Source of the DNA: an uncultured Bacteroidales bacterium
GTDB lineage: Bacteria > Bacteroidota > Bacteroidia > Bacteroidales > UBA10428
Direction: 5' to 3'
NCBI GenBank assembly: GCA_964521285.1
Contig: CAZFQS010000001.1
Coordinates: 62,438 to 126,437, forward strand
Length of the DNA: 64,000 nucleotides
Shown here: piece after piece, positions 1 through 25,361 of the stretch
Numbering within the stretch: the first letter of the stretch is position 1
Layout of the letters: each line of letters starts with the position of its first letter
Position numbers and translations under genes: made by a program
Notes under the pieces: model-generated
The model's database searches: none
What the model was told of the DNA's origin: nothing
Seen by the model: only the letters and a program-made list of their open reading frames with translations

Positions 1-2
1 TT

Positions 3-1154
3 TGGGTTGTTATACCGTTTGGCGTTTTGGGAGTACTAACCTTTACTACACCTGACATAAGTATCAATGGTAAAATAATATATGCTTATATAACTTATAT
101 TTTGCTTACAATGGCCTATACAATGATCAATGTGCCCTATTCTGCACTAATGGCGGTCATCACACCCGATTCTAAGGAACGAACTGTGATTTCCTCTTTC
201 CGGTTCGTAGCCGCATTTGTGGGGCAATTCATTGTTCAGTATGCCATTTTGAAATTGGTCAGTGTATTCGGGGATGGGAATGAGGCTAAGGGCTGGCAAT
301 TGGCTATGATTGTTCTTTCTGCTTTAGCGGTTATTCTGTATTTAATAACTTTTTCTACAACCAGGGAACGTGTTAAACCAATAAAAGAACAAAAGACACC
401 ATTTAAGCAGGATCTGATAGATTTATTTACCAACAAACCATGGGTACTGATAGCTGTCGCAACCATATTCCAGCTTATGTACAATTGCATGCGAAATGGT
501 AATATCATGTATTACTTTAAGTATTTTGTGCTGGATCAGCAAATGATTTTTTTTGGAAAAACCTATCATTTTTCTTATCAGGACCTGACAACTGCATTTA
601 TGCTTTCCGGTACCGCTTTGACCATTCTTGGAGCCATTCTGACAATTAAGTTGAGCAGGCGTTTTGACAAACCGAAAAGTTATGCCGGTTCTTTAGGTAT
701 AACCGCTATAGTAACAGCTCTTTACTATTTTCTCAACCCAAAGGATATTATCCTAATGTTTGCACTGAATCTTATTATTTCCTTTGCAATTGGAATTGTT
801 TCTGTATTACAATGGGCTATCTATACGGATACCACTTATTATTCGGAATGGAAAACAGGTCGTCGTGCTTCCGGGCTTCTCATGTCTGCCTCGCTGTTCG
901 CACTGAAGCTTGGAATAGCCCTGGGAAGTGCTTTTCTGGCATTCATCCTGGCCAGGTATGGTTTTGAAGCCAATGTACAACAGACGGCAGAAACATTAAC
1001 AGGCATACGTTTGGTTATGAGTGTTTACCCTGCCATTATCGCCTTCATTGGTGTTATTATTATATGGTTCTTTTATCCTTTATCAAACAAAATGTTGATC
1101 AGTATTGAGGAGGAACTATCTGCACGACGTCAATCTTCGAGTGATGATAATTGA
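3..1154 (+). CDS. Glycoside-pentoside-hexuronide (GPH/MFS_2) cation symporter, 5'-truncated by the window edge; probable xylo-oligosaccharide importer
   Basis: The frame is open from base 3 (WVVIPFGVLGVLTFTTP). GPH motifs: MAYTMINVPYSALMAVIT, ERTVISSFRF, TRERV, YSEWKTGRR, ANVQQTAETLTGIR. Multiple TM helices; adjacent to xylanases. Confidence 0.88.
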   Translation, partial: WVVIPFGVLGVLTFTTPDISINGKIIYAYITYILLTMAYTMINVPYSALMAVITPDSKERTVISSFRFVAAFVGQFIVQYAILKLVSVFGDGNEAKGWQLAMIVLSALAVILYLITFSTTRERVKPIKEQKTPFKQDLIDLFTNKPWVLIAVATIFQLMYNCMRNGNIMYYFKYFVLDQQMIFFGKTYHFSYQDLTTAFMLSGTALTILGAILTIKLSRRFDKPKSYAGSLGITAIVTALYYFLNPKDIILMFALNLIISFAIGIVSVLQWAIYTDTTYYSEWKTGRRASGLLMSASLFALKLGIALGSAFLAFILARYGFEANVQQTAETLTGIRLVMSVYPAIIAFIGVIIIWFFYPLSNKMLISIEEELSARRQSSSDDN

Positions 1155-1194: not shown

Positions 1195-2292
1195 ATGGAG
1201 AAAAGTAGTATCCGGAATAATAAAAATAAACAAAATCAACCTGCTTTGAAAGATGTATTTAAGGATGATTTTGATATCGGTGTTGCCCTTAATCTGGATC
1301 AGATTTCAGGTAAGGAACCAAAAACCACTGCACACGTGGAAAAACACTTTAACAGTATCACACCTGAAAATATTCTAAAATGGGAAGAGGTTCATCCGGA
1401 ACCAAACAGATATCATTTCGAACCGGTCGATCGTTATGTGGCTTTTGGTGAGAAGAATAAAATGCATATCATCGGCCACACCCTTGTATGGTTTCATCAG
1501 ACACCAGACTGGGTATTCCGGGATGAGTCAGGTAAGCCCTTGGACCGGGAGGTATTACTAAAACGGATGAAAGAACATATCTTCACTGTGATGGGCCGGT
1601 ATAAAGGGCGAATACATGGCTGGGACGTCGTTAACGAAGCCATAGTACCTGACGGTCAGTTCAGAAAATGTAAATGGCTAGATATTATTGGTGAAGATTA
1701 TGTGATCAAAGCTTTTGAATATGCCCGCCAGGCTGATCCCGATGCCGAGCTGTATTACAATGATTATAATTTTTACAGGGGGCGTCAATGTGAAACTGTT
1801 ATACGTTTAATTCAAAACATGCAGTCAAAAGGTGTACGTATAGACGGGATTGGTTTACAGGGACACTGGGGTCTGGATTATCCCAGTTACGAACAGATTG
1901 AGAATATCATCGGGTCTCTTTCCAAACTGGGCGTCAAGTTAATGATTACGGAAATGGATGTTACAGTTCTTCCTTTTGCTGAAGATTATCTGGATAAAAA
2001 ACTTACCTCTTTAGATCCCGGAATGCAAATGAAGTTGAATCCATACGCCAAAGCATTGCCAGAATCTGTTCAAAAAGAGCAGGCCAAAAGATATGCTGAA
2101 TTCTTTTCGATTTTTCTAAAGCACCGTGACAAGTTCAAACGAGTCACTTTTTGGGGAACCCACGACAGACAATCCTGGCGCAGTGACTGGCCAGTCATTG
2201 GGCGGACCGACTTTCCCTTATTGTTCGACAGTAAATGTGACCCAAAACCAGCCCTTGATGCCATCATTCAAACAGGTCTGAGTAAAAAGTAA
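1195..2292 (+). CDS. GH10 endo-1,4-beta-xylanase, no signal peptide (cytoplasmic)
   Basis: TPENILKW, GHTLVWFHQTP, WDVVNEA (acid/base Glu), YNDYN, IDGIGLQGH, ITEMDV (nucleophile Glu), RVTFWG. The N-terminus is hydrophilic. Confidence 0.95.
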   Translation: MEKSSIRNNKNKQNQPALKDVFKDDFDIGVALNLDQISGKEPKTTAHVEKHFNSITPENILKWEEVHPEPNRYHFEPVDRYVAFGEKNKMHIIGHTLVWFHQTPDWVFRDESGKPLDREVLLKRMKEHIFTVMGRYKGRIHGWDVVNEAIVPDGQFRKCKWLDIIGEDYVIKAFEYARQADPDAELYYNDYNFYRGRQCETVIRLIQNMQSKGVRIDGIGLQGHWGLDYPSYEQIENIIGSLSKLGVKLMITEMDVTVLPFAEDYLDKKLTSLDPGMQMKLNPYAKALPESVQKEQAKRYAEFFSIFLKHRDKFKRVTFWGTHDRQSWRSDWPVIGRTDFPLLFDSKCDPKPALDAIIQTGLSKK

Positions 2293-2344: not shown

Positions 2345-3562
2345 ATGGAGAATAAAAAAGATATTGAAATTATAGCAGCAGGCCATACCTGCCTTGATTT
2401 AATACCTGCTTTTACAATCGAAGAAAAAGTAGACAATATGACCGATGTCCTGGTCCCCGGTAAAATGATAAATATGGGTAAGTGTGTTGTTGTCGGTGGC
2501 GGGCCGGTAACAAATGCCGGTGTATCTATACGGAGACTTGGTGTTAAAACTGAATTAATCGGAAAGGTAGGAAATGATGATTTTGGTAAACAGATTCTCC
2601 GGTGGTATGAAGAATATGAAGGTCATTTTGAAGGCATTAAAGTTGTGGATGGTGAATCAACCTCATATACAATAGCGATTTGCATACCAGGGATTGACCG
2701 TTTTTACCTTCATCATTGCGGTGCAAATGACACATTTGGTTATGATGATATGAACTTTGATCTTGTGCTGCGTTCAAAACTGATGCTTTTTGGTTACCCT
2801 CCATGGATGGCGAAGCTTTATGATAATAAAGGTATTGAATTAACAAAAATCCTGAAAAAGACAAAGGAATTAGGAACCACAACTGTACTTGATCTTTCGC
2901 TTCCTGATGTAAACAGCAGGGCCGGTCAGATCGATTGGTTAACAATTCTCAACAACTGGGTCCCTCTGACAGATATTATGGTACCCAGTGCAGAAGAAAT
3001 TTTCTATTTTCTTTATAAAGATAAATTTCTTAAGAAAAAGGCAAATCTCGGACCCAAGGAGAGTGTGCTTGATCATATGACTATAAGCGAAATTTCAGAT
3101 CTGGGAAATGATTTAATAAAAATGGGGACGGCAATAGCTATGGTAAAATGTGGCCATAGAGGATTATATATCCGGACTGCTGATATAGATCGGCTAAAGA
3201 AATCAGGTGCAGCAGAATGTGCTGATTTCGAAAACTGGGCTAATCGCGAACTTTGGTTTCCTGTATATGAGGAGGAAAAATTTGTGGGTGCATTGGGTTC
3301 CGGTGATTCGGCAATTGCAGGATTTCTTGCGGCATTTGTCTGGGGTCATACGATTGAATCCTGTCTGAAATATGCAAATGCTGCCGGAAGTATGAATGTT
3401 ACCGTTCCTGATGGTCTTTCCTGGAATAAAGGATTTGATGATTTAACAAAACGGATTCAAGCAGGCTGGAAGACAAAAGATTTGAAAATTGATGAAAAAG
3501 GCTGGAAGCATGAGCGTGGATTTTGGGTTGGTCCAAATAATCTTGGGAAATGGGAATCATAA
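2345..3562 (+). CDS. PfkB/ribokinase-family carbohydrate kinase, substrate unknown
   Basis: GGGPVTNAGVSIRRLG, GKVGNDDFG, C-terminal anion-hole motif GALGSGDSAIAGF, ANAAGS. Confidence 0.88.
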   Translation: MENKKDIEIIAAGHTCLDLIPAFTIEEKVDNMTDVLVPGKMINMGKCVVVGGGPVTNAGVSIRRLGVKTELIGKVGNDDFGKQILRWYEEYEGHFEGIKVVDGESTSYTIAICIPGIDRFYLHHCGANDTFGYDDMNFDLVLRSKLMLFGYPPWMAKLYDNKGIELTKILKKTKELGTTTVLDLSLPDVNSRAGQIDWLTILNNWVPLTDIMVPSAEEIFYFLYKDKFLKKKANLGPKESVLDHMTISEISDLGNDLIKMGTAIAMVKCGHRGLYIRTADIDRLKKSGAAECADFENWANRELWFPVYEEEKFVGALGSGDSAIAGFLAAFVWGHTIESCLKYANAAGSMNVTVPDGLSWNKGFDDLTKRIQAGWKTKDLKIDEKGWKHERGFWVGPNNLGKWES

Positions 3563-3590
3563 ATAAATTTAAAATAAAGGAGGAAATAAA

Positions 3591-5408
3591 ATGTTAAAAA
3601 AAAGAGATGAATTCATCAGGAAAAAGATAGAAGGCATGAGCCTGGCAGAAAAGGTAGGTCAGCTTTTAACCTTTACCCGCCGTGGCACATTGCTAACCCC
3701 AAGCGGAATTGAACAAATTACCAAACTGCATTGTGGCGGTCTTTGCCTTGAGCCATACGCACTAGAAACCTGTAAAAATCTTTACTGGGGCAATTCCCAG
3801 GTAGATAAAAACTTTAAAAAACCAAAGGATTATTTTACCATAGCAAATAACTATTTTGCCGGTAAGACTTTTGGTATCAGTATTACACCGGAAGAATACA
3901 CAAAAGATTTAAACAGGTTGCAGAAAATTGCCATGGACAGACCCTCCGGGATACCTCTCCACATGACCATTGACTTCGAAGGTGATTTTAAGAACGACTA
4001 CATGTCAGGCGGTATAAGGCAATTCCCTGGTCCAATGGGTATGGCTGCAATCGGTGATCCCAAACTGACCTATAAAATTGGCTATACCATTGCCAAGCAA
4101 CTAAGTGCTATAGGTGTTACACAGATGTATTCCCCGGTTTGCGACGTGAATACAAATCCCAGGAATCCTGAAATTGGAGTCAGGTCATTTAGTGATGACC
4201 CTCAGATGTGTGCTGAACATGCTGTTGCTTTGATTAAAGGTTTACAGGACGGAGGCATAGCTGCAACCGGGAAACATTTCCCGGGAAGAGGCAATTCGGG
4301 TAGTGACGCTCATGATGTATTGGAGATTTTAGATATGGATAAAAAAAGAATGCATGAAGTTGAATTGGTTCCTTTCAAAGCAGCAATAGATGCCCGAGTT
4401 AAAGCTATTATGACTGGGCATTCTGTTTATCCGGCCTATGATGATAAATACCCAACAACATTGTCAGTAAAAATACTGACCGGACTTCTCAGAAATGAAT
4501 TAGGATTCGATGGTGTTATTGTTTCTGATGCCATCGGTATGGCTGCAATTCTTAAAAAGTGGCCTCTCCCGCAAGCTTGCGCAATGGCAATAAAAGCAGG
4601 CTGTGATACAATACTCTTGAAGGCTGATGATGAATCCAGGTCACAGTGTTTCTTTGGGATTAAACAGGCTGTTGAGAAGGGGGAATTATCCGAAGAAAGA
4701 GTTGATGAATCTGTAAGGCGTCTTTTAATAATGAAATACGACCAGGGATTGTTTGAAACAGCCGGTAAAAAAGACCCAAAGGAAACATTCAAAATTACCA
4801 CCAGTAAAGAAATTATAGATTTCTCCTGGGATGTTGCCAAAAAAGCCCTGATAATAATGCGGGACGAAAAAAAATTGCTTCCGCTAAATCCGGAGAAAAG
4901 AATACTTGTCATTGAACAACGTATCCCTTATGAATTTATTGGTAAGGATCCATATTTCCACACTCACATGTTTTGCGAGGCAATGGTAAATCATTCAACA
5001 AATTTGATTCTGGCCGACACAGCATTTTCTGCATTTGATGAAGAAATTGAAGAATGTCTTCAGCTTGCCAGACAGGTTGACCTTGTTGTGATGACCAATT
5101 ACTATGCAAGGATCGTAAAATCAGGTAATAATCAACTACTTATAAAGAAGTTGAAGAATGCAGGACATCAGGTTGTAGTGGTAACCAACAATCCCTATAT
5201 AGAGGGCACTACAAAGGAAGCTGATGCCGTAATCTGTAATTTCAGTGGTACACCTGATTCCATAAGAGTTTCAACAGAACTGCTTTTTGGAAAGATTAAA
5301 CCATCTCCAAAAACCAGATTGCCAATCACTCTTGGTATTCACGAGGCAGTTGCTGACAAAAAGCTAAAACCGCCAAAGAAACATCCTTTGGATTTATCTT
5401 ATTGTTAG
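3591..5408 (+). CDS. GH3 glycoside hydrolase/phosphorylase of the NagZ-like subgroup, atypical, no signal peptide
   Basis: PVCDVNTNPRNPEIGVRSFSDDP, KHFPGRGNSGSDAH (cf. KHFPGHGxxxxDSH), IVSDAIGM nucleophile, C-terminal GH3_C-like domain. Strong GGAGGA Shine-Dalgarno upstream. Confidence 0.85.
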   Translation: MLKKRDEFIRKKIEGMSLAEKVGQLLTFTRRGTLLTPSGIEQITKLHCGGLCLEPYALETCKNLYWGNSQVDKNFKKPKDYFTIANNYFAGKTFGISITPEEYTKDLNRLQKIAMDRPSGIPLHMTIDFEGDFKNDYMSGGIRQFPGPMGMAAIGDPKLTYKIGYTIAKQLSAIGVTQMYSPVCDVNTNPRNPEIGVRSFSDDPQMCAEHAVALIKGLQDGGIAATGKHFPGRGNSGSDAHDVLEILDMDKKRMHEVELVPFKAAIDARVKAIMTGHSVYPAYDDKYPTTLSVKILTGLLRNELGFDGVIVSDAIGMAAILKKWPLPQACAMAIKAGCDTILLKADDESRSQCFFGIKQAVEKGELSEERVDESVRRLLIMKYDQGLFETAGKKDPKETFKITTSKEIIDFSWDVAKKALIIMRDEKKLLPLNPEKRILVIEQRIPYEFIGKDPYFHTHMFCEAMVNHSTNLILADTAFSAFDEEIEECLQLARQVDLVVMTNYYARIVKSGNNQLLIKKLKNAGHQVVVVTNNPYIEGTTKEADAVICNFSGTPDSIRVSTELLFGKIKPSPKTRLPITLGIHEAVADKKLKPPKKHPLDLSYC

Positions 5409-5428
5409 TATTACGGAGGAAATATCAT

Positions 5429-7990
5429 ATGCATAAACTTCACAGTATAGAAATAAAGGACGTTTTCACTATTTCCGGAGCTCAAATAAGCGAGATTTAT
5501 AAAAAAAATAAAATGTCAGTCCATTTTCAGGGAATGTCAAAAACACTTCAGTTCCCTCATACCATTGCTCTTCAGGGGGCTCCAACCTGTTCGGCAGGCA
5601 TTTCTCCCGAAGGGTTGTACAACAGGCTTAATGATGCGGGCAGATTGATCCTGTTGAATCAAAATGCCATTCAATTTGCTTCAGCACCATTTATACGCAT
5701 CTCAGCGGATCCTGATGTGGAAGATTCGAGAGATGAGCATATTATGCTCACCACAAGGAACCCCAGGCTGGTAGAAGGTCCGGATGATGTACCTGCCCTG
5801 AAGAACTATTATCACCCTGTTATATCTGAAAACCAATTCTCTGTCTCATTGGCCACACCTCTGGCAGAATTGGTCTATACATTGGAAAAAGTCAGGGTTA
5901 CCAGGAGAATAATTTCTCCTTTTCTCTCAGGAAATGATCAGATGTTAATGCCTGTGTGCGTTGAGGAATTCGAGGTAAAAAATACTTCCGGTAAAACTCA
6001 AAAAATTACTCTGGTCTTACCCAGGCCATCACTGGTAAATCTCCAGGAAAAAGAATTAAAACCGACAGACCAGGATACTATTTATTTATGCGCAACTCCT
6101 GTGAAAGGGCATGTTCATGAAGCTTTCAAATCAGCGGGTATGACAGGGATTATCATGGCAAGCAGGGAATGTCAGGATAAAATGGTCATTGGTGTGCCGG
6201 AAATGAACAATGTGAACATAGATACACAGCCATATTTTTGCCTGAACAGACTTAAACAGGATTTATTATTGAATGATGACGGAAGTTTTTACGAAAAGAG
6301 AGCCCCTATTATTAAACAAGATTATGGATCGGCCATTAGTCTTTGTTTTACACTTGAACCCGATGCATCAGTTATAATACCTCTTGTCATAGCTTTAGAC
6401 TTCCCGCAACAGCATTATATTGACGGTAAAATGTTTGATCGCTCGTATCTCAGAACTTTTAAAAACAAAGAAACCAGAGCTTTGGATATGACTAAAATTG
6501 CACTGGAAAACTATCCTGATTGGCTTGAACGTACATTGACTATCCAAAGCAGAATATTTGATCAAATATGTCACAGTCCTTCCTATAAAGACGATAAGGA
6601 CGGTGCATTGAGACTGTCACGATTAATTTTTAACGAATTCAGTTTTCCATTATCAAATGCTGCCATCTGGACTGAAGACAAAGATGGCAATGATGTAGCC
6701 AGGTTCCTGGAATGTTTTGACTATGCTTATATCAATCCTTCTGATGTTGACTGGTATTCCATGGTGTTGCTGGTTCTCTTTCCTAATATTGAACAGGAAC
6801 TCTGCCAGCGGTTTATTGACTCAATTCTGGCTGAAGATCCTACACCCCGATTTTATCATTACCACTCTTCATTTGTAGAAGCCAGAAAACACTATTATGA
6901 CTATACGGATGAATATGAAGGTGAATCGATGACACAGATACGGGATGCTTTTAAGATTAAAGGCAGCGTAGCCCATGATGTAGGCGCTATGCCGAAAGGT
7001 CATCCCTTACGAAATGTAAGTGATTACGCATGGTACAACAATAATTACTGGGTAGATCTTTTCCCGAAACTGGCATTAAGGGTTTTACGCAATGTCAAAT
7101 TCCTGGATAATACTAAATTCTTAAAGAAAAACTGGGAAACACTTAAGTTTGGCCAGGAATTTTTAATGGCTCTTGATATTGATAAAGACGGTGTTCCTGA
7201 AGGTAATCCGAATGAAGTTAAAAATACTTTTGATAATTTAACCTTATTTGGTGTGGATGCTTATGATGTCACTACTTTCCTGGCTGGTGTGCAGGCAATG
7301 ATTAAAATGGCAGACATGATGAAAGATGAACCTGCTAAAAAGCAATACCGGCAAATGTTTGAAAAAGCTTCGGAAAGTTTTGAAAAACTATGGAGAGAGA
7401 AGAAAAACAAAAAGGGTCGCACATTGCAGTATTATATCACCTGTTACGATCCGGAAACAGGGAAAACAAATACAGATACATGGACCAACCAGCTGGATGC
7501 TTTATGGTATTTGATCGCTATTGGCGAAGAACCCTTTATCTCCGGGGACAAGGCAAAAAAAATCCTAAAGACCATTTATGAGAATAACCGTACCACTATG
7601 GGCTGGGCAATGTGCCGAACAGAGGACGGAGAAGCAGTAGAATCGGAACAGGGGCAGGATGTCTATACAACATCAAATTATGTTTTTGCGCAGCTGCTTG
7701 ATTATTATGGAATGGGCAAAGAGAGTAAAGAGGTATACAAAGCAATGGATAAGGTAGTATTCCGGCACGGTAATACATTGATTACACCGGATAACCTCAG
7801 GGCTGAATTGGAAAAAGAAGAAGGAGAAGTAACCAAAGGCCCCCATTATATAGTAGCCGCTTATCCACGGCCAGGAGCGGTATTGACTCATATAGTGATG
7901 CAACACATCAAAGAGCTTCAGAATCAAACGAAATCTACAATAATAGATTCCGGGGAATTGAAATCTTATATAACTAATTTAATGAAGTAA
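5429..7990 (+). CDS. Divergent GH116 (GBA2-like) beta-glycosidase, no signal peptide
   Basis: FLECFDY nucleophile motif, SDVDWY, AHDVG, WVDL, DIDKDGVPEG..NTFDNL..G..AY (cf. PDQTYDTW..G.SAY), QLDALWY. Start moved from the TTG at 5402 to the ATG at 5429, which follows GGAGGA. Confidence 0.75.
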   Translation: MHKLHSIEIKDVFTISGAQISEIYKKNKMSVHFQGMSKTLQFPHTIALQGAPTCSAGISPEGLYNRLNDAGRLILLNQNAIQFASAPFIRISADPDVEDSRDEHIMLTTRNPRLVEGPDDVPALKNYYHPVISENQFSVSLATPLAELVYTLEKVRVTRRIISPFLSGNDQMLMPVCVEEFEVKNTSGKTQKITLVLPRPSLVNLQEKELKPTDQDTIYLCATPVKGHVHEAFKSAGMTGIIMASRECQDKMVIGVPEMNNVNIDTQPYFCLNRLKQDLLLNDDGSFYEKRAPIIKQDYGSAISLCFTLEPDASVIIPLVIALDFPQQHYIDGKMFDRSYLRTFKNKETRALDMTKIALENYPDWLERTLTIQSRIFDQICHSPSYKDDKDGALRLSRLIFNEFSFPLSNAAIWTEDKDGNDVARFLECFDYAYINPSDVDWYSMVLLVLFPNIEQELCQRFIDSILAEDPTPRFYHYHSSFVEARKHYYDYTDEYEGESMTQIRDAFKIKGSVAHDVGAMPKGHPLRNVSDYAWYNNNYWVDLFPKLALRVLRNVKFLDNTKFLKKNWETLKFGQEFLMALDIDKDGVPEGNPNEVKNTFDNLTLFGVDAYDVTTFLAGVQAMIKMADMMKDEPAKKQYRQMFEKASESFEKLWREKKNKKGRTLQYYITCYDPETGKTNTDTWTNQLDALWYLIAIGEEPFISGDKAKKILKTIYENNRTTMGWAMCRTEDGEAVESEQGQDVYTTSNYVFAQLLDYYGMGKESKEVYKAMDKVVFRHGNTLITPDNLRAELEKEEGEVTKGPHYIVAAYPRPGAVLTHIVMQHIKELQNQTKSTIIDSGELKSYITNLMK

Positions 7991-8149: not shown

Positions 8150-9967
8150 ATGTCATTTAAAGTTTTTTACAGCTCAGTTTTTGTTCTGTGCCTTATGCCG
8201 TTTGTATGCTCATTTGGCGACTCTAATATACTTGATAACCACGGTTTTGAAAGAGGAAGGGACGGTTGGTTCGATCGAACCTGTGCAATAGAAGCTGTTT
8301 CATCACCGGTTCACAGTGGTACAGGAAGCGTGAAAGTAATCCACAGATTACAAAACTGGCAGGGAATTAAACAGTCAGTATTTGGCAAAATGATAGATGG
8401 AAAAACATATCAGGTATCAGGCTGGGTAAGGCTTGATAATGCCCAAAGTGATTTGGTCGCTATATCATTTGAACAACAGGATGATGGAGGTACTAGATAT
8501 TATAATGTAGCCCGGGCCCTGGCATCAGACACCGGATGGATTCAGCTTTCCGGAGAATTTACCTTGAATGTGACAGGTACGCTGTCTGTTCTGGATGTGT
8601 ACTTTGAAGGTCCTGCACCAGGAGTTAATTTTTATGTTGATGATGCGATTGTATATGGTCCTGAAATCGATGCTCCAAAAGTAATCCCGGCCAAACCCAA
8701 CGGGAAAGGCAGGATTAATATTGGTATTCGTCATCAGAAAATAGAAGGATTTGGTGCCTCCGGAGCATTTTATACAATGGACCTGTTAAAACATAAGAAA
8801 AAAGATGAACTGATGAATTTGCTTTTTAAAGACCTTGGCCTGGATATCTTCCGCATTAGAAATACATACGAAATGGACTCTAATACTTTCTACGAATCTG
8901 CTGAAATAGCCAGAAATGGTGAAGCTGCCCTCGGGCGCGATTTGAAGATTCTGGTTTCATCATGGTCACCGCCGGTTTACCTGAAAAGCAACGATAACAA
9001 AATAGGTGGAACGCTTAAGCAATGCAATGGAAAATATATGTATGATGAATTTGCACAGTGGTGGTATAATAGCATTGCTGCTTACAATAAAGCAGGTCTG
9101 AAAATTTATTATATAAGCATACAGAATGAAGTTGATTACGAAGCCCCATGGCAATCATGCAAATTTGCTCCTGCAGAAAATCCAGGTTCAAACCTGGCCG
9201 CCTATGACAAAGCCTTCGAGACGGTTTGGCACAAACTGAATTCTGAAATGGGTTCTGCCATGCCAAAGATGCTTGCACCCGAATCGTCCGGTTTAGGGAA
9301 CGCCAAAGAGTATATAGAAAATTTAGATAGTTTGTCACATGTTTATGGATATGCAGTACATTATTATGATTGCAGTGGGTGCGGCTCTTCTCCTGACAGG
9401 TTTATTCCACGAATGAACAGTCTGAGTAACTTTATTATGCAGTATGGCAACAAACCTTTGTTTCAGACAGAGTTTGAGGATGAACCAGGAACTTGGAAAG
9501 ATGCGATCAATATGGCATTGGTTATATACAATTCTCTTACAGCAGCTAAAGTTTCAGCTTATCTTTACTGGGATCTATTCTGGGCTCCGGGAACTGCTTT
9601 GGTCAGCCTGGACGATTCGTCTTCTTACACAATTAAGCCCACCTATTATGCCTTCAAGCAGTATTCAGCATATATTGATGCAGACTGGCAACGCTTGGAT
9701 GCTGTTACGGATAATGCTGGTCTGAGGTTATCGGCTTTTATCAGCCCTGATAATAAAAAATTAACGGCAGTAATACTCAATGTCAGTGACAGTGTGGATA
9801 TTTCGCTCAATCTTGCCATAAAGAATTTTTCTGTATCCAAAGGTGAAATTTATCGATCCAGTAAAATGGAAAACTGTGTTCTTGTGGGAAACTATGATGG
9901 AAAGGGTTTATTAAAAATACCTAAAAATTCTGTTACCACCCTTTTACTTTATGCCAAGGGAAAATGA
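8150..9967 (+). CDS. Exported CBM4/22-GH30 xylanase-like protein (glucuronoxylan xylanase subgroup likely)
   Basis: Signal peptide MSFKVFYSSVFVLCLMPFVCSFG. CBM_4_9 module (NHGFE...GKTYQVSGWVR...FYVDD). GH30 motifs GFGASGA, SSWSPP, IQNEVDY, FQTEF, AYLYWDLFW. ATG at 8150 follows GGAGGA. Confidence 0.85.
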   Translation: MSFKVFYSSVFVLCLMPFVCSFGDSNILDNHGFERGRDGWFDRTCAIEAVSSPVHSGTGSVKVIHRLQNWQGIKQSVFGKMIDGKTYQVSGWVRLDNAQSDLVAISFEQQDDGGTRYYNVARALASDTGWIQLSGEFTLNVTGTLSVLDVYFEGPAPGVNFYVDDAIVYGPEIDAPKVIPAKPNGKGRINIGIRHQKIEGFGASGAFYTMDLLKHKKKDELMNLLFKDLGLDIFRIRNTYEMDSNTFYESAEIARNGEAALGRDLKILVSSWSPPVYLKSNDNKIGGTLKQCNGKYMYDEFAQWWYNSIAAYNKAGLKIYYISIQNEVDYEAPWQSCKFAPAENPGSNLAAYDKAFETVWHKLNSEMGSAMPKMLAPESSGLGNAKEYIENLDSLSHVYGYAVHYYDCSGCGSSPDRFIPRMNSLSNFIMQYGNKPLFQTEFEDEPGTWKDAINMALVIYNSLTAAKVSAYLYWDLFWAPGTALVSLDDSSSYTIKPTYYAFKQYSAYIDADWQRLDAVTDNAGLRLSAFISPDNKKLTAVILNVSDSVDISLNLAIKNFSVSKGEIYRSSKMENCVLVGNYDGKGLLKIPKNSVTTLLLYAKGK

Positions 9968-9989: not shown

Positions 9990-12917
9990 TTAATCATTTT
10001 CTTCTTCCAACCTGTAATAACTTTCAGGCGGTCCCAGATAACTTGGACTGACTTTGCCTGTTTCAACAACAACCTTCTGTAAAACAATGCCCGGATCAAC
10101 CATCCAGAACTTAAGTATATGCCTGCCTGATTCAGTGATGTCATGTTCTGAAACACCGATTGTAATATTGCTTCTCACGGATTCCTCCCAATCCTGAAAT
10201 GTTTTGTCCTTATGGATATTTACAATCTGCGGTTGTTCATCATCAAAGGAAACAGCATAACATAATCCCTCATCGTTATGGAAATTTAATGTGGGTGATA
10301 TATAGGCTTTAACCTTTGCCTGTCCGCTGTTAAAGAGATGCATCTGGTATTCAAGATGAGGACTGTTACCTCCGGGGGACTGGCTTTCAGCCGTAACAGG
10401 AACAGGGGTCATTCCTGAAAGCGTGCGGCCCAGGTCCGGAATATGCAGCCACCGGACCGGTTCTGCATCAACTGCCCTGGTATAATGCTCAGCCTCCATA
10501 GAGACGTAACGATTACTTTCAACAAATCCTGTTATTTGGTCTTTTTCCGGAAACCCATAGTTGTTAACAATAGCCCTGACAATAACACTGGTACCATCCG
10601 GCCCGTTTACACTTATCGGAACATTGTGTATTCCGATAGGTACCTGCTGCCAGTCAACACTCACCCAGACACGCTGTTCCTCATCTACTTTTCCTTTATC
10701 GGGCGTAACATATAACCAGGTTTTTTCGGTTTCAATTACATAATCAAAAGGTACCTGCCCCCGGTTAAATACTTCTATATAATATTTCTGCTGATTAAAA
10801 GGATCAAAACCGGGTAATACAGCACTGCTCTTTTCCATTGGCCACCAGTTGTCTGATCCCTCAATTGCCACCCCCATTTCTGCAATATCGGGCAGGTCTA
10901 TCTCCTTAACTTCAGGCATGTTATTCTGTTCTGGTTGCTGCCAATAGGTATAACCGATATGTGTCTGCGACATCATATGATTCCACTTACCTCCTGCCAT
11001 TTCGGTATGGAAGTAATCTGTTAATTCCGCATCCTTGGCAAACAACTCTCTAACCCGCTGTGCCATTATATTTGTGGCAGCCCGCTTCTGGTTAGCATAT
11101 AAACGGTTCTTTCCTGCAGTAACATAGAGGTCGTTAAGATTTGCACAGGCTTTTACCGGAAAGAGTACAAGCTGGTAATATGCATCTTTATATTCGGGAG
11201 GCAATTTCATGTAAATCTTTTCAGCTTCATCAGCCAGCTTATTGTAGTCAGCTACGACAGTTTCCGCTTCTTTAAAGTCAGTCAGGCTATAAATATCCGG
11301 GTCAAGTAACTCAGGTTTTCTGCGTCCATTGTATTTAGTATATTTTGAGAGTATATCTGCAATAGCTGCCGAGTAACGGTCTCCAAATTGTTGCTTTGCC
11401 CACATCCTCGTGTATTCTGGCAGAGCTTCAGCAGGCCATTCCTCAGGATTCCATGCATAGTCAAGAAAAAACTGGGTAGGAAATTCCATGGGTTTTATAT
11501 CTCCTACATTAACTATCCAAATTTGCTTTGCGCTGTAACGATAAGCCAGGTGCATCTGTTCCCATACTCTTGGAATAGGATTTGTATTCAGCCATTTATA
11601 GTTTCTCGGTCCACCGACATAATCAAAATGATAATATATACCATATCCACCTGACCGGTGTGGGTCTCCAGGCCTGGGTAACTTTCTTATATTACCCCAG
11701 TTATCATCGCACAGTAACAATGTTACATCATCAGGCACCCTCATACCTTTATCATAATAGTCCTGCACTTCCTTATACAGAGCCCATTTCTGGGGAGTGG
11801 AAGCTGCCGGCTTGCCGGTTACTTCTTCAATAATTTCTCTCTGATCATTAACAATTCTTTCCAGCAGGGCTATCGCAGTACCTTCTGTCATCGGCTCATC
11901 ACCATCGCCCCTCATACCCACAGTAACAATACTCTCGTATGAGTCCATCCTTTGTATACCTTCCCTCCAGAACTCCTTTAAAGTATCTTCATTGAGTTCA
12001 TAATTCCATCTCCCCGAGCCAAAACGTCTCCATTCGTCATGAGCCCTCATCAGAGGTTCGTGGTGTGATGTCCCTATAACAATACCATATTCATCTGCTA
12101 ATTTCGGATTAAGCGTATCATCCGCGTAAAATGCCCTGCCCCACATTGCAGGCCACAGATAGTTACCTTTTAGCCTAAGTATAAGTTCAAAAACATTCTC
12201 ATAAAACTTATGGTTAAAACCCCCGAACTTTTCATAGGCCCACCCGGAAAGTGCCGGTGCCTCATCATTAATGAAAATCCCCCTGTATTTTACTGCAGGC
12301 TCTCCCCTTGTATAGCGCCCCGGCAACATAAAAAGATCAGGATTGTGTTCTACAGGTACATCAGCCCACCAGTACCATGGTGAAACACCTATATTTGCAG
12401 AAAGATCATATATGCCATATATTGTACCCCGCTTATCACTGCCTGCAATGACCAGGGCACGTTTAACACCTCGCAGAGGCTCTTCCAGAACCTCCATGAC
12501 AAATGATTCCCATCTGCCCTTAATATCCTCAACATCAAGTTTCCCGTCCTTTACCAGCTTATCTATAACAGGGCTTTTGCCCAGTGTGCCAATAAGCATA
12601 ACCTGTTCTAAAGCAGGTAATTTATTTATATAAATCCGGGGTTCTGTATTTGTTACACGGCCAATGTCATCCTGCAAATCCTCCACTGCCCTTATTACTC
12701 CAGGATAATCCTCCTCACTTACAAATAATGGGGAAGATTTTCCCTGTGCGGAAAGGACAAAGCTGAAACCGTCATTTTTCGTTGATATGTAGGACGTATT
12801 ATATGCATCCACGTTAGATTGTGGAAAAACTAAAGTACCCACTGAACAGAACAACATAAAGAAACCAAGTCTTGGTTTTTTATATAACAATAGAGAAAAG
12901 TCAGAATGTTTTGCCAT
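9990..12917 (-). CDS. GH115 xylan alpha-1,2-(4-O-methyl)glucuronidase
   Basis: GSDKRGTIYGIY, GVSPWYWWADVP, YRGIFINDE, LKGNYLWPAMW, GTSHHEPLMRA, DDNWGNIR, YYHFDYVGGPRNYKW, WIVNVGDIKP. Hydrophobic N-terminus. Confidence 0.95.
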   Translation of the reverse strand: MAKHSDFSLLLYKKPRLGFFMLFCSVGTLVFPQSNVDAYNTSYISTKNDGFSFVLSAQGKSSPLFVSEEDYPGVIRAVEDLQDDIGRVTNTEPRIYINKLPALEQVMLIGTLGKSPVIDKLVKDGKLDVEDIKGRWESFVMEVLEEPLRGVKRALVIAGSDKRGTIYGIYDLSANIGVSPWYWWADVPVEHNPDLFMLPGRYTRGEPAVKYRGIFINDEAPALSGWAYEKFGGFNHKFYENVFELILRLKGNYLWPAMWGRAFYADDTLNPKLADEYGIVIGTSHHEPLMRAHDEWRRFGSGRWNYELNEDTLKEFWREGIQRMDSYESIVTVGMRGDGDEPMTEGTAIALLERIVNDQREIIEEVTGKPAASTPQKWALYKEVQDYYDKGMRVPDDVTLLLCDDNWGNIRKLPRPGDPHRSGGYGIYYHFDYVGGPRNYKWLNTNPIPRVWEQMHLAYRYSAKQIWIVNVGDIKPMEFPTQFFLDYAWNPEEWPAEALPEYTRMWAKQQFGDRYSAAIADILSKYTKYNGRRKPELLDPDIYSLTDFKEAETVVADYNKLADEAEKIYMKLPPEYKDAYYQLVLFPVKACANLNDLYVTAGKNRLYANQKRAATNIMAQRVRELFAKDAELTDYFHTEMAGGKWNHMMSQTHIGYTYWQQPEQNNMPEVKEIDLPDIAEMGVAIEGSDNWWPMEKSSAVLPGFDPFNQQKYYIEVFNRGQVPFDYVIETEKTWLYVTPDKGKVDEEQRVWVSVDWQQVPIGIHNVPISVNGPDGTSVIVRAIVNNYGFPEKDQITGFVESNRYVSMEAEHYTRAVDAEPVRWLHIPDLGRTLSGMTPVPVTAESQSPGGNSPHLEYQMHLFNSGQAKVKAYISPTLNFHNDEGLCYAVSFDDEQPQIVNIHKDKTFQDWEESVRSNITIGVSEHDITESGRHILKFWMVDPGIVLQKVVVETGKVSPSYLGPPESYYRLEEEND

Positions 12918-13110: not shown

Positions 13111-14123
13111 TTATAATTTTAAGTATCTGTTCAATTCATTTACCAGCTTTTGCTTTTTGCTATTTTCACACCATGCAGAATTTATTCCGTTTTCTGTTAG
13201 CTTTTTTATATCAGCAGATTTAAATCCGCATTCTTCCATCAACATAAGATATTCTTCCTCCATACTGTTATTGAACATCTTGGGATCATCTGTATTAACA
13301 AATACATTTAACCCTTTTTTATAGTAATCTCTTACAGGATGTTCTTTAATATTCTTTACTACACCTGTTCTTATATTTGATATGGGGCACATCTCCAGGG
13401 GTATCTGATTTTCTTTAAGATATTCAATAAGTTTATCATCTTCAAATGCTCTTGTGCCGTGTCCTATTCTGTCTGTCTTTAGCTGATTTATTGCGCCCCA
13501 TATACTATCTGCTCCTGAAGCTTCTCCGGCATGGGCCGTTGTTTTAAAGCCATATTCTCTTGCTTTTTCATATACTTCTTTAAAAGGTCCGGGTGGATAT
13601 TTATGTTCCGAACCCCCTATGCCGATACCGATAATTTTTTTATCCTTTAACTCACTAAGTTGATGAACAACATGCATGCTATTCTCAGGCCCTGCATCCC
13701 TGCACAGGTCAGCTATTAAAAATATCTCTATCTCATTTGAGTAATAATTAAACCCGATCCTGATTGCTTCAGTCAGTTTTTCAGTTCAATATTCTTACTA
13801 AAATGATCTGCCGGTGTATAAAACATCTCAACGTATTTAATATTTTGTTCCTTTAAATCACCGGCTACTTCTTTTGCAATAAAGGTAAAGTCTTCATATT
13901 CTCTTAAAAACTGATTTTTCCAGACCCAGGTTTCAATGAAATGTGAGAAATCTTTGTATTTAAATTTATCATGCAAGTCTTCGAGACTATTAATATTCTT
14001 ATTTCCACCATATTTAACTACCAGGCTCCATAAGGCTTTAACCGGTATTGCTCCTTCCAGATGAATATGTAATTCAACTTTAGGTAAATTCCTTATAAAT
14101 TGTTTATTATTAATCTGTTCCAT
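13111..14123 (-). pseudogene. add: Adenosine/adenine deaminase split by a single-base frameshift near 13777-13781
   Basis: ORF 13773..14123 has PKVELHIHLEG. ORF 13111..13677 has TTAHAGE, RIGHGTR, EMCPISN and NTDDP. The frames join across CTG-AAAAA-CTG if one base is added, giving about 337 aa. Confidence 0.85.
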
Positions 14124-20238: not shown

Positions 20239-21744
20239 ATGAATAACCCGGTTAATTATGAAGTCTGGTTTGTTACAGGCAGCCAGCATTTATACGGAGA
20301 AGAAACCCTTAAACAGGTAGAAAAAAACTCAAAAGATGTAGTTTCAGGCATATCAGATGCCATAAAATCGCCTGTAAAAATTAAGTTTAAATCTGTTCTG
20401 ACCACGCCTGAAGCAATAACAAAGATTTGCCATGAAGCAAACAGTTCGGAAAACTGTATAGGACTAGTTGCATGGATGCATACTTTTTCACCTGCTAAAA
20501 TGTGGATTACAGGCCTGAAAAATCTTGTAAAGCCTTACGTGCATATGCATACTCAATATAACAGAGATATACCATGGAATGAAATAGATATGGATTTCAT
20601 GAACCTTAATCAGTCAGCCCACGGAGGAAGAGAATTTGGCTTTATTAATGCCCGGATGGGCATTGAAAGGAAAGTGATTGTCGGTCACTGGAAAGATACA
20701 GAAGTAATAATAGAGCTGGATATATGGCTCAGAGCTGCTATTGGCAGGCATGAACTGTCAACATTAAAAGTCGCACGTTTTGGCGATAATATGCGTAGTG
20801 TTGCAGTTACCGAGGGTAACAAGGTTTCAGCCGAGATCCAGTTCGGATTATCTGTTCACGGATATGGTGTTGGTGACCTGGTCGACTATGTAAACAATGT
20901 ATCTGAAAGTGCTGTTAATGCTTTGTTTGATGAGTATAAAGAACAATATTCAATTAAAGCATCTATACTCGCTGACAAGAAATATATTGCTGCAATAAGG
21001 GATCAGGCAAAATTAGAATCAGGTATGAAATCTTTCCTTGAAGATGGAGGATTTAGAGCATTTACAACCACATTTGAAGATCTGCACGGACTAATTCAAT
21101 TGCCGGGACTTGCAGTGCAGAGGTTGATGAATCAGGGTTACGGATTTGGCGCCGAAGGTGACTGGAAAACTGCTGCCCTGGTAAGGGTGATGAAAGAAAT
21201 GGCTACAGGTATGAAGGGGGGAACCTCATTCATGGAGGATTATACCTATCACCTCGACCCTAAAGGAATGAAAGTGCTGGGAGCACATATGCTTGAAGTA
21301 TGTTCATCTATTGCGGCAGGTAAGCCCTCATTAGAAGTTCATCCCCTGTCAATCGGAGGGAAAGCTGATCCTGCACGCCTGGTATTTAAGGCTCCGACAG
21401 GTGAAGCACTAAATGTTTCACTTATGGATATGGGAAACCGTTACCGTTTACTTGTTAATAAAGTCGAAGTGGTTGACATTCCTGATTTACCTAAACTACC
21501 TGTTGCAAGAGTCCTTTGGGCACCGAAACCGGATTTGAAAGTTGCAGCCGGGGCATGGATACTTGCCGGAGGTGCACATCACACAGCATTTACACAATCG
21601 CTTTCAATTGATCATATTATTGATTTAGCTGAGATGGCAGGTATTGAATGCCTTGTAATTGATGAGAATACAAACATCCCTGATTTTAAAAAGGAAATAA
21701 AATTAAATGAGGTGTATTATTTTTTAGCTAAAGGTATCCGATAA
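20239..21744 (+). CDS. araA: L-arabinose isomerase
   Basis: [72 protein letters not shown]. Confidence 0.98.
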
Positions 21745-21761
21745 AATAAAAACTAATAATT

Positions 21762-22475
21762 GTGCTTAAAACACTAAAAGAAAGGGTATTACATTCAAAT
21801 TTGAGTCTTGTTAAACACGGACTGGTAATTTTTACCTGGGGAAATGTAAGCGGTATTGATCGTGAGAAAGGACTGGTTGTTATAAAACCCGGCGGGGTTT
21901 CCTACGATGATATGAAAGCTGATGATATGGTGGTCGTTGACCTTGAAGGAAATGTTGCTGAGGGTGATTTAAACCCCTCATCTGACACACCCACTCACCT
22001 TGTTTTATATAGAAACTTTGAGAAAATAGGTGGAATTGTACATACTCACAGCGAGTGGGCAACCAGCTGGGCACAGGCCGGAAGATCCATACCTGCTTAT
22101 GGTACCACCCACGCTGATTATTTCTATGGTGAAATACCTTGTACCAGAAAATTAACCAGAAAAGAAATAGATAAAGATTATGAATTGAATACCGGTAAAG
22201 TAATTGTTGAAAGGTTTAAAGAACTGGATTATGAAGCTTTGCCCGGTGTTTTGGTAAACGGCCATGCTCCTTTTGCCTGGGGGACTGATCCTGAAGAGGC
22301 AGTTCATAATGCTGTAGTTATGGAAGAGGTAGCAAAAATGGCATTGAGAACTGAAGTATTAGGGAATACGAATCCTGTGGACATGTATCTACTGGATAAA
22401 CATTACATGCGTAAGCATGGTAAAAAGGCCTATTACGGGCAAAATAAAAAAAATGACTCCCGGGACAAACAATGA
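21762..22475 (+). CDS. araD: L-ribulose-5-phosphate 4-epimerase
   Basis: [42 protein letters not shown] start. Confidence 0.97.
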
Positions 22476-22529
22476 AGCAACATTATAATCTTTAAACATA
22501 TTAATATTTTAATATAAAAAGTATATAAA

Positions 22530-24209: not shown

Positions 24210-24216
24210 AATTACC

Positions 24217-25353: not shown

Positions 25354-25361
25354 ACATTAGT

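Follow-up and report, generated by a model that had tools for sequence, protein, structure and literature searches.

A PfkB-family sugar kinase, a NagZ-type GH3 and a divergent GH116 form a real and uncharacterised three-gene module. It was found in 46 loci that span at least nine bacterial phyla, plus one archaeal-looking contig. The copy described here lies in a 64,000-nucleotide stretch of a contig from an uncultured Bacteroidales bacterium, referred to as the window. The module may serve as a self-contained cytoplasmic finishing unit for imported xylo-oligosaccharides, with the kinase acting on a ketose. This reading is favoured tentatively, and its probability is put somewhat short of an even chance.

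Few polysaccharides are as abundant as xylan, and the cytoplasmic end steps of its use are considered solved, with β-xylosidases, XylA and XylB as the enzymes. The module is an additional, invariant three-gene unit inside the xylan loci of many uncultured lineages. No description of a kinase–GH3–GH116 module, and no characterised member of any of its three clades, was found in the literature.

Organisation of the locus

The window begins with the 3' part of a gene for a YagG-like oligosaccharide:cation symporter of the GPH/MFS_2 type (1..1154 (27-1154), plus strand; PF13347, 213 bits; TIGR00792 gph, 274 bits). The window boundary truncates the gene at its 5' end; the complete gene in locus L001 encodes 469 aa. 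Four genes follow on the same strand. They encode a predicted cytoplasmic GH10 endo-xylanase of 365 aa (1195..2292; PF00331, 331 bits), a long PfkB-family sugar kinase of 405 aa (2345..3562; PF00294, 67.6 bits), a two-domain GH3 with NagZ-type catalytic residues (3591..5408; PF00933, 258 bits; PF01915, 33 bits) and a divergent GH116 of 853 aa, predicted to be a retaining β-glycosidase (5429..7990; PF04685, 164.7 bits; PF12215, 57.4 bits). The intergenic gaps along this run measure 40, 52, 28 and 20 nt when the GH116 gene is taken to start at ATG 5429. Although that reading frame already opens at TTG 5402, its earliest in-frame start, the ATG is favoured by the alignment of orthologs and by the L001 gene call. 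A search for an internal terminator in the run found no convincing one, and none of the RNA runs searched holds sequence of the locus.

Two further genes complete the neighbourhood. The first (8150..9967, plus strand) encodes a protein predicted to be secreted, with a CBM4_9 domain (PF02018, 89 bits) joined to a GH30-like, XynC-like domain with weak GH30 matches; its most likely start is ATG 8150, giving a signal-like N-terminus, MSFKVFYSSVFVLCLMPFVC. It is a flanking xylan gene outside the conserved trio and is not kept beside the trio elsewhere. The second, the gene of a GH115 α-glucuronidase likewise predicted to be secreted (9990..12917, minus strand; PF15979, 527 bits; PF17829, 216 bits), also has a signal-like N-terminus and is convergent with the run.

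A Kyte–Doolittle scan found no hydrophobic N-terminal segment in the GH10, PfkB, GH3 and GH116 proteins of the window (maximum 0.7–1.6), whereas the N-termini of the GH30-like protein (2.5) and GH115 (2.2) are hydrophobic. In related loci, the threshold of the scan was exceeded by 0–2% of the PfkB, GH3 and GH116 orthologs, against 100% of the GH43 and GH67 proteins. All four enzymes are thus predicted from their N-termini to be cytoplasmic. The sequence-only reading had described co-oriented genes with gaps of 20–52 nt and four enzymes lacking the signal peptides of the flanking GH30 and GH115, and both descriptions were borne out, as were the reading frames and families.

Import appears to rely on the GPH symporter. 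The SusC/SusD pair beside CAZymes by which a Bacteroidota polysaccharide utilisation locus (PUL) is recognised is missing, and neither a TonB-dependent receptor nor a SusD gene occurs within 7.6 kb upstream or 20 kb downstream on the window's contig. GPH genes flank the trio in 25 of 43 genome loci.

Conservation and genomic context

The order of the three genes is collinear, with one exception, on every contig long enough to display it. Chance cannot plausibly account for an arrangement that is repeated in 46 independent loci. The carriers are uncultured lineages of sediments, peat and digesters and include Planctomycetota, KSB1, Acidobacteriota, Neomarinimicrobiota, Chloroflexota, Bacteroidota, WOR-3 and Ratteibacteria. 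Kinase orthologs from 41 species are 77–99% identical (median 83%). pS ranges from 0.63 to 1.03 and dN from 0.08 to 0.14, with synonymous sites saturated, and GC3 varies from 0.31 to 0.88 and tracks that of the host. The saturated synonymous sites, together with a GC3 that follows the host, identify this as purifying selection rather than recent transfer. By these substitution patterns, the module is a long-standing resident under strong constraint, as would be expected for a core catabolic step. It has clearly moved between phyla as a unit, and probably into an archaeon too.

About 40 of the 46 loci also hold a xylan CAZyme (GH10, GH43, GH67, GH115 or GH8). The proposal that the trio should be conserved together and next to xylan genes was checked on this set, and the trio proved to be a collinear unit almost always beside such genes. 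In most loci a GH10 gene, 47–70% identical to that of the window, lies immediately 5' of the kinase gene. GH115 adjoins the trio in 8 of the 43 genome loci, mainly in Planctomycetota, and also in L047 and L049.

The PfkB kinase

Membership of the kinase in the PfkB family is well founded: PF00294 scores 67.6 bits against a cut-off of 25.8, and the required motifs are present. G52/G53, N57, E217/E218 (SAEE) and G320/D321 (GSGD) are invariant or nearly so among 45 family members, and the AF2 model (pLDDT 95) has a generic ribokinase fold. Its place within the family is less usual. The named PfkB equivalogs of NCBIfam, among them ribokinase, fructokinase, KDG kinase, IolC, 1-PFK, tagatose kinase and ribose-1-P kinase, gave 15 matches, all far below their cut-offs; the best was the IolC N-domain (68.8 bits, cut-off 300). 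Identity to each of the solved structures is 15–20%, the best PDB sequence match being the Thermococcales kinase PH1459. A helical insert and a C-terminal extension make the protein about 100 residues longer than known PfkB kinases. The enzyme is not XylB (FGGY family, TIGR01312), as it carries the PfkB domain alone, with no FGGY N- or C-terminal domains.

The xylose genes in the neighbourhood bear on whether this kinase simply stands in for XylB. A bona fide XylA lies within the operon in L012, L017 and L047, and in L012 and L047 there is no XylB within 10 kb. In L049, a bona fide XylB (TIGR01312, 607 bits) and XylA occur beside the module, and the L017 operon holds, next to XylA, a probable XylB whose best match, from a partial query, is TIGR01312 at 277 bits (cut-off 380 bits). 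In L049, and probably in L017, there would be no need of another xylulokinase, so that a simple xylulokinase replacement is doubtful. XylA is found within 10 kb in only about 4–6 of the 46 loci, whereas GH3 and GH116 always adjoin the kinase, so that the constant partners of the kinase are the glycosidases and not the isomerase. The claim that this is not merely the standard xylulokinase step is therefore upheld, both by the failure to match any named equivalog and by the coexistence with XylB.

Further indications come from the kinase paralogs, which are 31–50% identical and never lie beside GH3 or GH116. Some are fused to mannitol dehydrogenase. A D-lyxose isomerase gene immediately adjoins the kinase gene in at least 10 paralog loci, GH38 is directly adjacent in others (6 visible on maps), GH42 likewise in two (L085, L087), and DeoC/LacD aldolases lie nearby. 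The closest kinase outgroup, P0126, is the gene after a FucI-type isomerase. The recurring pattern is a glycosidase, an aldose–ketose isomerase and a ketose kinase. The sequence-only reading had proposed that the kinase acts on a released non-xylose sugar or substituent, or on a sugar-1-phosphate. The isomerase neighbours and the mannitol dehydrogenase fusions point instead to a more ordinary reaction, ketose phosphorylation, and the substrate of the module kinase is possibly a ketose as well, with D-xylulose among the candidates.

Proposed route

The finishing reading can be laid out as a sequence of steps, in which the order and the substrates of all three enzymes are inferred. GH30, GH115, GH67 and GH43 enzymes would trim xylan outside the cytoplasm, and GPH symporters would import the resulting oligosaccharides. 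The signal-less GH10 would then shorten them to short oligomers, from which the NagZ-like GH3 and the GH116, as retaining exo-β-glycosidases, would release monomers. The released sugar would be converted to a ketose, most likely D-xylulose formed by XylA, and the PfkB enzyme would phosphorylate this ketose as the last step. It is possible that such a route is undescribed. GH3 and GH116 may both simply be β-xylosidases; two xylosidases with a PfkB-type xylulokinase would provide a useful annotation rule and a new metagenome marker for xylan users.

A broader departure, considered fairly unlikely, is a route unknown for xylan. In it, the GH3 would cleave with phosphate, the kinase would accept a sugar-1-phosphate, an intact glycoside or even xylose instead of a free ketose, or both would apply. 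Part of the energy of the glycosidic bond would then be saved, or the sugar would be trapped, with the classical XylA/XylB sequence bypassed. The exceptional conservation, which for the kinase extends across phyla and to an archaeal-looking contig, would reflect a tightly coupled three-enzyme system. If the GH3 were phosphorolytic, or the kinase acted on a glycoside or sugar-1-phosphate, this would be the first energy-conserving or kinase-coupled xylo-oligosaccharide route.

The GH3 enzyme and a phosphorolytic reading

The GH3 motif KHFPGRGNSGSDAH aligns with KHFPGHGDTGEDSH of 6k5j and KHFPGHGDTDVDSH of YbbD. It contains the signature of the NagZ/Nag3 subgroup, KH(F/I)PG(H/L)G-x4-D(S/T)H with its Asp–His dyad, with two substitutions relative to the consensus (R for H/L and A for S/T), and the nucleophile Asp is found in VSDAIGM. 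All of the 13 orthologs compared have D128, R198, K228, H229, D239, H241 and D313. The best PDB matches are GH3 GlcNAcases (6k5j) and YbbD, and the β-glucoside phosphorylase BglP (5vqd) is matched at 2e-33. With 147.3 bits, the protein stays below the cut-off (207) of the NagZ equivalog NF003740. The label "NagZ-type" thus stands for the catalytic motif and the best structural matches but not at the level of the equivalog.

GH3 enzymes with the His/Asp dyad are phosphorylases (PMC8950772). This dyad is the one that makes Nag3 and BglP phosphorylases, and it counts against the finishing reading. The GH3 could instead generate a β-pentose- or β-hexose-1-phosphate, which the PfkB enzyme would phosphorylate or otherwise process while GH116 hydrolyses the remainder, in parallel to the archaeal pairing of a nucleoside phosphorylase with a PfkB ribose-1-phosphate kinase. 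Besides the match to BglP and the invariant Asp239/His241 dyad in KHFPG-x-G-x4-D-x-H, several observations agree with this: the kinase gene always lies directly 5' of the GH3 gene with gaps of 20–50 nt, most hosts are anaerobes and stand to gain from economy in ATP, and the kinase has PH1459 as its best PDB sequence match and partial matches to the ribose-1-phosphate kinase models. Those partial matches, however, do not extend beyond a generic N-terminal motif, and their scores fall far short of the cut-offs. Xylopyranose-1-phosphate offers no primary hydroxyl to a PfkB kinase, and no enzyme is known to take it onward. No mutase or bisphosphate-processing gene is conserved across the trio loci, and the paralog contexts point to free ketoses. 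On balance, a phosphorolytic module is regarded as unlikely.

The GH116 enzyme and other substrates

Assignment to GH116 is supported by both Pfam domains and by equivalents of the nucleophile, the acid/base and the substrate-binding residues. The best PDB match is TxGH116 (133 bits, 9e-38), and FLECFDY, PSDVD, AHDVG and NTFDN align to its residues. E441, D452, H507, T591 and D593 of TxGH116 correspond to E428, D439, H516, T600 and D602, which are invariant in 15 orthologs. Single-sequence and profile alignments end short of the 6-OH-binding region (E777/R786, R792), and the C-terminal ~85 residues are unalignable to TxGH116. In this region, the clade has TP(D/E) followed by an invariant charged insertion (R791, E795, E797, E800, H806, R814). 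The GH116 family, which shares clan O with the cytoplasmic GH52 β-xylosidases, also includes β-xylosidase activity (PMC10167657).

The nearest characterised GH116 enzymes, such as TxGH116, are β-glucosidases, and NagZ-like GH3 enzymes act on GlcNAc or Glc. The trio might accordingly be co-regulated with xylan genes while targeting cello- or laminari-oligosaccharides, aryl β-glycosides of lignin–carbohydrate complexes or GlcNAc-type glycosides; the kinase, whose paralogs look fructokinase-type, would then act on a ketose from the released hexose, such as fructose. GH10 or GPH genes are missing around the trio in L019, L031, L040 and L048. In L048 a canonical β-xylosidase-type GH3 comes after the trio, which speaks for the finishing reading. 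Such a shift of substrate is judged decidedly unlikely: about 40 of the 46 loci are xylan loci, cellulase, laminarinase and chitinase genes are absent as recurrent neighbours across them, the accompanying transporter belongs to the YagG xyloside type, and β-xylosidase activity is found in GH116 as well.

The charged insertion, situated in the C-terminal active-site loop, is one of the points in favour of a glycoside-kinase reading. Here the PfkB enzyme would phosphorylate a primary hydroxyl of the intact imported oligosaccharide or glycoside, for instance on an arabinofuranosyl or hexosyl decoration, and GH3, GH116 or both would be phospho-glycosidases, as in the pairs BglK/6-phospho-β-glucosidase and MngA/MngB, the latter being a GH38 enzyme that acts on a phosphorylated mannoside. 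In three separate clades of the kinase family (GH3/GH116, GH38 and GH42), the kinase gene abuts a cytoplasmic glycosidase gene. PfkB enzymes that act on glycosides also exist, namely the acarbose 7-kinase 6wb7, which matches the module kinase weakly, and the nucleoside kinases. Against this, the xylan backbone has no primary hydroxyl, to our knowledge no phospho-glycosidase occurs in GH3 or GH116, and free ketoses account better for the isomerase genes beside the paralog kinases, so that this variant appears very unlikely.

That the trio is an unrelated cassette inserted into a xylan locus, as the sequence-only reading had offered as an alternative, would fit the joint transfer of the three genes across phyla and, probably, to an archaeon, but it is contradicted by the xylan genes that accompany the trio in about 40 of the 46 loci and at least nine phyla, usually right after a cytoplasmic GH10, and retains next to no probability.

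Relation to known systems

The finishing module favoured here has its closest counterparts in Geobacillus stearothermophilus and Paenibacillus sp. JDR-2, which combine an intracellular GH10 (XynA2/IXT6) with GH52, GH39 and GH43 β-xylosidases and with XylA/XylB. The likeness lies in oligosaccharide import followed by a signal-less GH10 and several cytoplasmic exo-enzymes. In the present loci, however, a NagZ-type GH3 and a GH116 take the exo-acting role, GPH rather than ABC transporters handle import, the α-glucuronidases are exported, and the invariant partner is a PfkB instead of an FGGY kinase.

With the NagZ, Nag3 and BglP enzymes, including YbbD and 6k5j, the module GH3 shares the motif, the nucleophile Asp and the two-domain architecture. 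It differs in a clade-specific Cys-rich N-terminal segment, in its score under the NagZ equivalog cut-off and in its xylan context, as opposed to peptidoglycan or chitin. The module GH116 retains both domains, the nucleophile, the acid/base and the 3-OH/4-OH residues of TxGH116 from Thermoanaerobacterium xylanolyticum and of the β-glucosidase/xylosidase SSO1353, but the similarity is distant, and the unalignable C-terminal stretch with its charged insertion sets it apart.

The kinase shares fold and catalytic motifs with ribokinase, fructokinase, KDG kinase, IolC, YdjH and YihV, from which it is distinguished by its extra ~100 residues and its failure in every equivalog model. The logic of YihQ–YihS–YihV (glycosidase, isomerase and sulfofructose kinase) resembles the gene contexts of the kinase paralogs. 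Whichever reading proves correct, the wider family of ~400-aa PfkB kinases, which comprises 469 clusters at 50% identity (E<1e-30), gains its first functional hypothesis.

Gene content of the xylan locus

The adjacent genes for a PfkB kinase, a GH3 and a GH116 enzyme form an exceptionally conserved module that has not previously been described in the literature searched. On the plus strand, the locus opens with a symporter gene of the MFS_2/GPH family (27–1154; Pfam/NCBIfam), the 5' part of which lies beyond the window start; the complete gene, present in the contig copy L001, encodes 469 aa. It is followed by GH10 (1195–2292), the 405-aa kinase (2345–3562), a two-domain GH3 (3591–5408) and GH116 (5429–7990), all read from the ORF listing and Pfam/NCBIfam. 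For GH116, the earliest in-frame start is TTG 5402, but the L001 gene call and the ortholog alignment favour ATG 5429, which leaves gaps of 40, 52, 28 and 20 nt between the five genes. An N-terminal hydrophobicity scan revealed no signal-like segment in GH10, PfkB, GH3 or GH116 and a clear one in the GH30-like and GH115 proteins encoded downstream. The gene list, order and signal-less enzymes proposed from the sequence alone are thus borne out.

Downstream of GH116 lies a plus-strand CBM4_9–GH30-like gene (8150–9967), with 8150 as its probable start; TTG 8084, ATG 8150 and 8195 (the gene caller's choice) are the candidates. Its product carries CBM4_9 at the N-terminus and is strongly divergent, with 20–25 bits for the GH30 Pfam models and 62 bits for XynC against a cut-off of 650. 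Next comes GH115 on the minus strand (9990–12917), convergent with the trio genes. Two adjacent minus-strand ORFs, 13111–13677 (188 aa) and 13773–14123 (116 aa), both match the adenosine/AMP deaminase family and look like a single gene interrupted by a frameshift or by faulty assembly.

Neither xylA nor xylB was found in the window. A complete L-arabinose cluster (20239–26045, plus strand; araA, araD, FGGY-type araB, aldose 1-epimerase and a NUDIX-type AraR), about 12 kb downstream of the xylan genes, fits growth on marsh-grass arabinoxylan. The contig stems from a salt-marsh metagenome, and the sequence is present in metagenomic DNA runs from salt marsh and marine sediment; the runs listed include no RNA. 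Its Bacteroidales affiliation is supported by the nearest relatives and one T9SS-tagged protein. The contig surroundings of the trio hold no SusC/SusD pair, and Rfam, terminator and promoter scans of the region gave nothing informative.

Conservation of the trio and its xylan context

The kinase search yielded more than 1000 homologs; the best 120 all match at 82–100% identity along the entire protein. Among these 120, the sources with names are Bacteroidales, Sedimentisphaerales, KSB1 and Bacteroidota MAGs, with no isolate among the named top matches. Taking one genome per GTDB species yielded 43 loci, to which three long contigs with Pfam annotation were added; gene order was read by tblastn with the window proteins and an ORF map. 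The 43 loci span Planctomycetota (Sedimentisphaerales, Pirellulales and Phycisphaerae), Acidobacteriota/Terriglobia, KSB1, Bacteroidota, Neomarinimicrobiota, Anaerolineae, Ratteibacteria and WOR-3.

A GH3 ortholog (71–85% identical to the window GH3) directly follows the kinase, and a GH116 ortholog (59–76%) comes next in all sufficiently long loci save L040, which has PfkB–GH3 alone. In most loci, a GH10 without signal peptide lies directly upstream. Further neighbours are one to three GPH symporters, GH43 with a beta-xylosidase C-domain and GH67 (both Pfam-verified), GH115, and GH8 (Rex-type, mostly without signal); some loci also have XylA, with or without XylB. At least one xylan-type neighbour gene is present in about 40 of 46 loci, and two of the remaining six or so are too short for the xylan context to be judged. 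The trio is therefore co-conserved beside xylan genes. The sequence-only reading had weighed an undescribed cytoplasmic sugar route against an unrelated cassette inserted into the xylan locus. This recurrence leads to rejection of the cassette, and the co-conservation and the signal-less enzymes lend the cytoplasmic reading partial support. Cytoplasmic end-processing of xylan fragments is a plausible role for the module.

Sequence divergence and transfer history

Among 41 species, pairwise identity of the kinase has a minimum of 77% and a median of 83%. Minimum and median across species are 64% and 76% for GH3, 58% and 70% for GH116, 48% and 57% for GH115, 36% and 46% for GPH, and 20% and 53% for GH10. 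In codon-level comparisons with the window copy, kinase nucleotide identity is only 70–82%, and the proportion of synonymous differences (0.63–1.03) is saturated; dN amounts to 0.08–0.14 for the kinase, 0.10–0.21 for GH3 and 0.15–0.28 for GH116. Trio GC3 follows the GC of each host, with values between 0.31 and 0.88. Given the saturated synonymous sites and the host-adapted GC3, recent horizontal transfer is rejected as an explanation for the high identity, and the amino-acid conservation reflects unusually strong purifying selection. The module has clearly moved across phylum boundaries, yet its copies have had time to ameliorate within their hosts.

The 420-kb contig of L048 (JGI 3300035643) carries URO-D, PfkB, GH3, GH116 and a canonical beta-xylosidase-type GH3, and its kinase shares 85% identity with the Bacteroidales kinase. 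The neighbours are archaeal-type: NurA, a HerA-like ATPase, RIO kinase, an Sm-like protein and H+-PPase. These neighbour genes are suggestive, not proof, of an archaeal contig, and the locus suggests that the module has passed between domains.

The kinase and its wider family

The kinase passes the PfkB Pfam model but scores far under the cut-off of each named NCBIfam equivalog; its best PDB sequence match is PH1459 (1e-12). The motifs GG, N57, E218 and GSGD/D321 are kept. An AlphaFold (AF2) model built from a 45-sequence alignment reached a pLDDT of 95. Naming the enzyme by this predicted structure failed, as Foldseek returned only generic PfkB neighbours (ribokinases, YdjH, YihV, KDG kinase, IolC) at 15–20% identity, with about 100 kinase residues unmatched.

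An exhaustive search of 50%-identity representatives gave 469 clusters at E<1e-30, almost all of about 400 aa (proteins P0155, P0164, P0172 and P0176 and the paralog loci L051–L131 are noted members of this family). The xylan-locus clade is a single cluster at this level, its next relatives being at most 50% identical, and in several representatives the kinase is fused to an enzyme of the mannitol-dehydrogenase family. Paralog context was read from 80 metagenome loci with kinases 41–61% identical to the family member P0124, and in none of the 80 did GH3, GH116, GH10 or GPH lie beside the kinase. Instead, a D-lyxose/mannose isomerase immediately precedes or follows it in at least 10 loci (Pfam-verified, on maps), GH38 directly abuts it in several (six on maps) and GH42 in two (L085, L087). 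DeoC/LacD-type aldolases, mannitol-dehydrogenase-like and Zn-dependent dehydrogenases and URO-D proteins also lie nearby, and P0126, the closest outgroup found (46% identical), comes after a FucI-type isomerase. These contexts suggest unexplored isomerase–ketokinase(–aldolase) routes for mannose-type or pentose sugars, in which the aldose freed by a glycosidase would be turned into a ketose by an isomerase or polyol dehydrogenase and then phosphorylated by the PfkB enzyme. On the strength of this recurring pattern, the window kinase is regarded as a probable ketose kinase.

Candidate substrates and the glycosidases

In the leading proposal, the kinase would phosphorylate D-xylulose formed by XylA. 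In L012, a bona fide XylA separates GH10 from the kinase; in L047 and L017 it lies directly upstream of GH10–PfkB, and neither L012 nor L047 has a XylB within 10 kb. Against this stand a bona fide XylB–XylA pair adjoining the module in L049, a probable XylB in the module operon of L017 (best match TIGR01312, under cut-off, truncated query), and the scarcity of XylA itself, which most loci lack, whereas GH3 and GH116 are never missing beside the kinase in loci long enough to show them, L040 apart. The assignment to D-xylulose is therefore tentative, at somewhat less than an even chance, and the two XylB cases weaken the view of the kinase as a plain XylB replacement.

A divergent XylA-like TIM-barrel isomerase is encoded downstream of the trio in Terriglobia (L014:15746-16816) and Anaerolineae (L028:12815-13660). 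Scoring 147 and 95 bits against the class I XylA cut-off of 447, these proteins may have another specificity and be partners of the kinase.

Phosphorolysis by GH3, with the kinase acting on the sugar-1-phosphate, is an unlikely alternative.

The GH3 enzyme aligns best with the GH3 GlcNAcases 6k5j and YbbD and also with the beta-glucoside phosphorylase 5vqd, and it scores under the NagZ equivalog cut-off. Its catalytic motif is KHFPGRGNSGSDAH. In 13 orthologs there is no variation at the nucleophile D313, at the Asp-His dyad (D239/H241) or at D128, R198, K228 and H229. Phosphorylase activity has been shown for GH3 enzymes carrying such a dyad (PMC8950772). Residues 46–67 (window 3726–3791) form an invariant, clade-wide, Cys-containing N-terminal segment, LHCGGLCLEPYALETCKNLYWG, where other NagZ-like GH3s have a simpler conserved Gly-Gly segment.

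A non-xylan substrate, handled by genes co-regulated with those for xylan, is likewise unlikely, given how regularly xylan-type genes flank the trio; the context of L040 is non-xylan.

A kinase acting on the glycoside, followed by phospho-glycosidases, would be slightly less likely still.

By alignment, GH116 keeps the nucleophile, acid/base and 3-OH/4-OH ligands of TxGH116, and the equivalents of E441, D593, D452, H507 and T591 are invariant among orthologs. The last ~85 residues, where the 6-OH ligands E777 and R786 lie in TxGH116, did not align to that enzyme by full protein, C-terminal peptide or profiles; they include a charged, clade-specific, invariant insertion. Clan O unites GH116 with GH52 xylosidases, and beta-xylosidase activity occurs in GH116 (PMC10167657).

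A KDG kinase serving glucuronate from GH115/GH67 is unsupported: KDG-kinase models score only ~36 bits, uxaC, uxuA, uxuB and eda are not recurrent in trio loci, and the paralog contexts hold isomerases and polyol dehydrogenases, not a hexuronate pathway.

Relation to known systems and corrinoid neighbours

The closest described system is the intracellular processing of xylo-oligosaccharides in Geobacillus and Paenibacillus by intracellular GH10, GH52/39/43 xylosidases and XylAB. In the trio module, all three enzymes belong to other clades, and the invariant partner is a PfkB kinase. Its enzyme families are already known, but the literature searched contained no account of the module, which may hide new chemistry.

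A corrinoid methyltransferase system occurs within the trio xylan operons of several anaerobe lineages (L030:300-3138, L030:16473-18068, L016, L021, L022:15047-16078, L041, L043, L045, L048:8173-9288). A possible function is O-demethylation of ferulate or 4-O-methyl-glucuronate; no literature description of sugar O-demethylation by such a system was found. In L030 it consists of a URO-D-family methyltransferase, another URO-D protein, a corrinoid protein that binds B12 and a RACo reductive activator, the last encoded directly 3' of GH116. URO-D genes also lie beside the kinase paralogs next to GH38.
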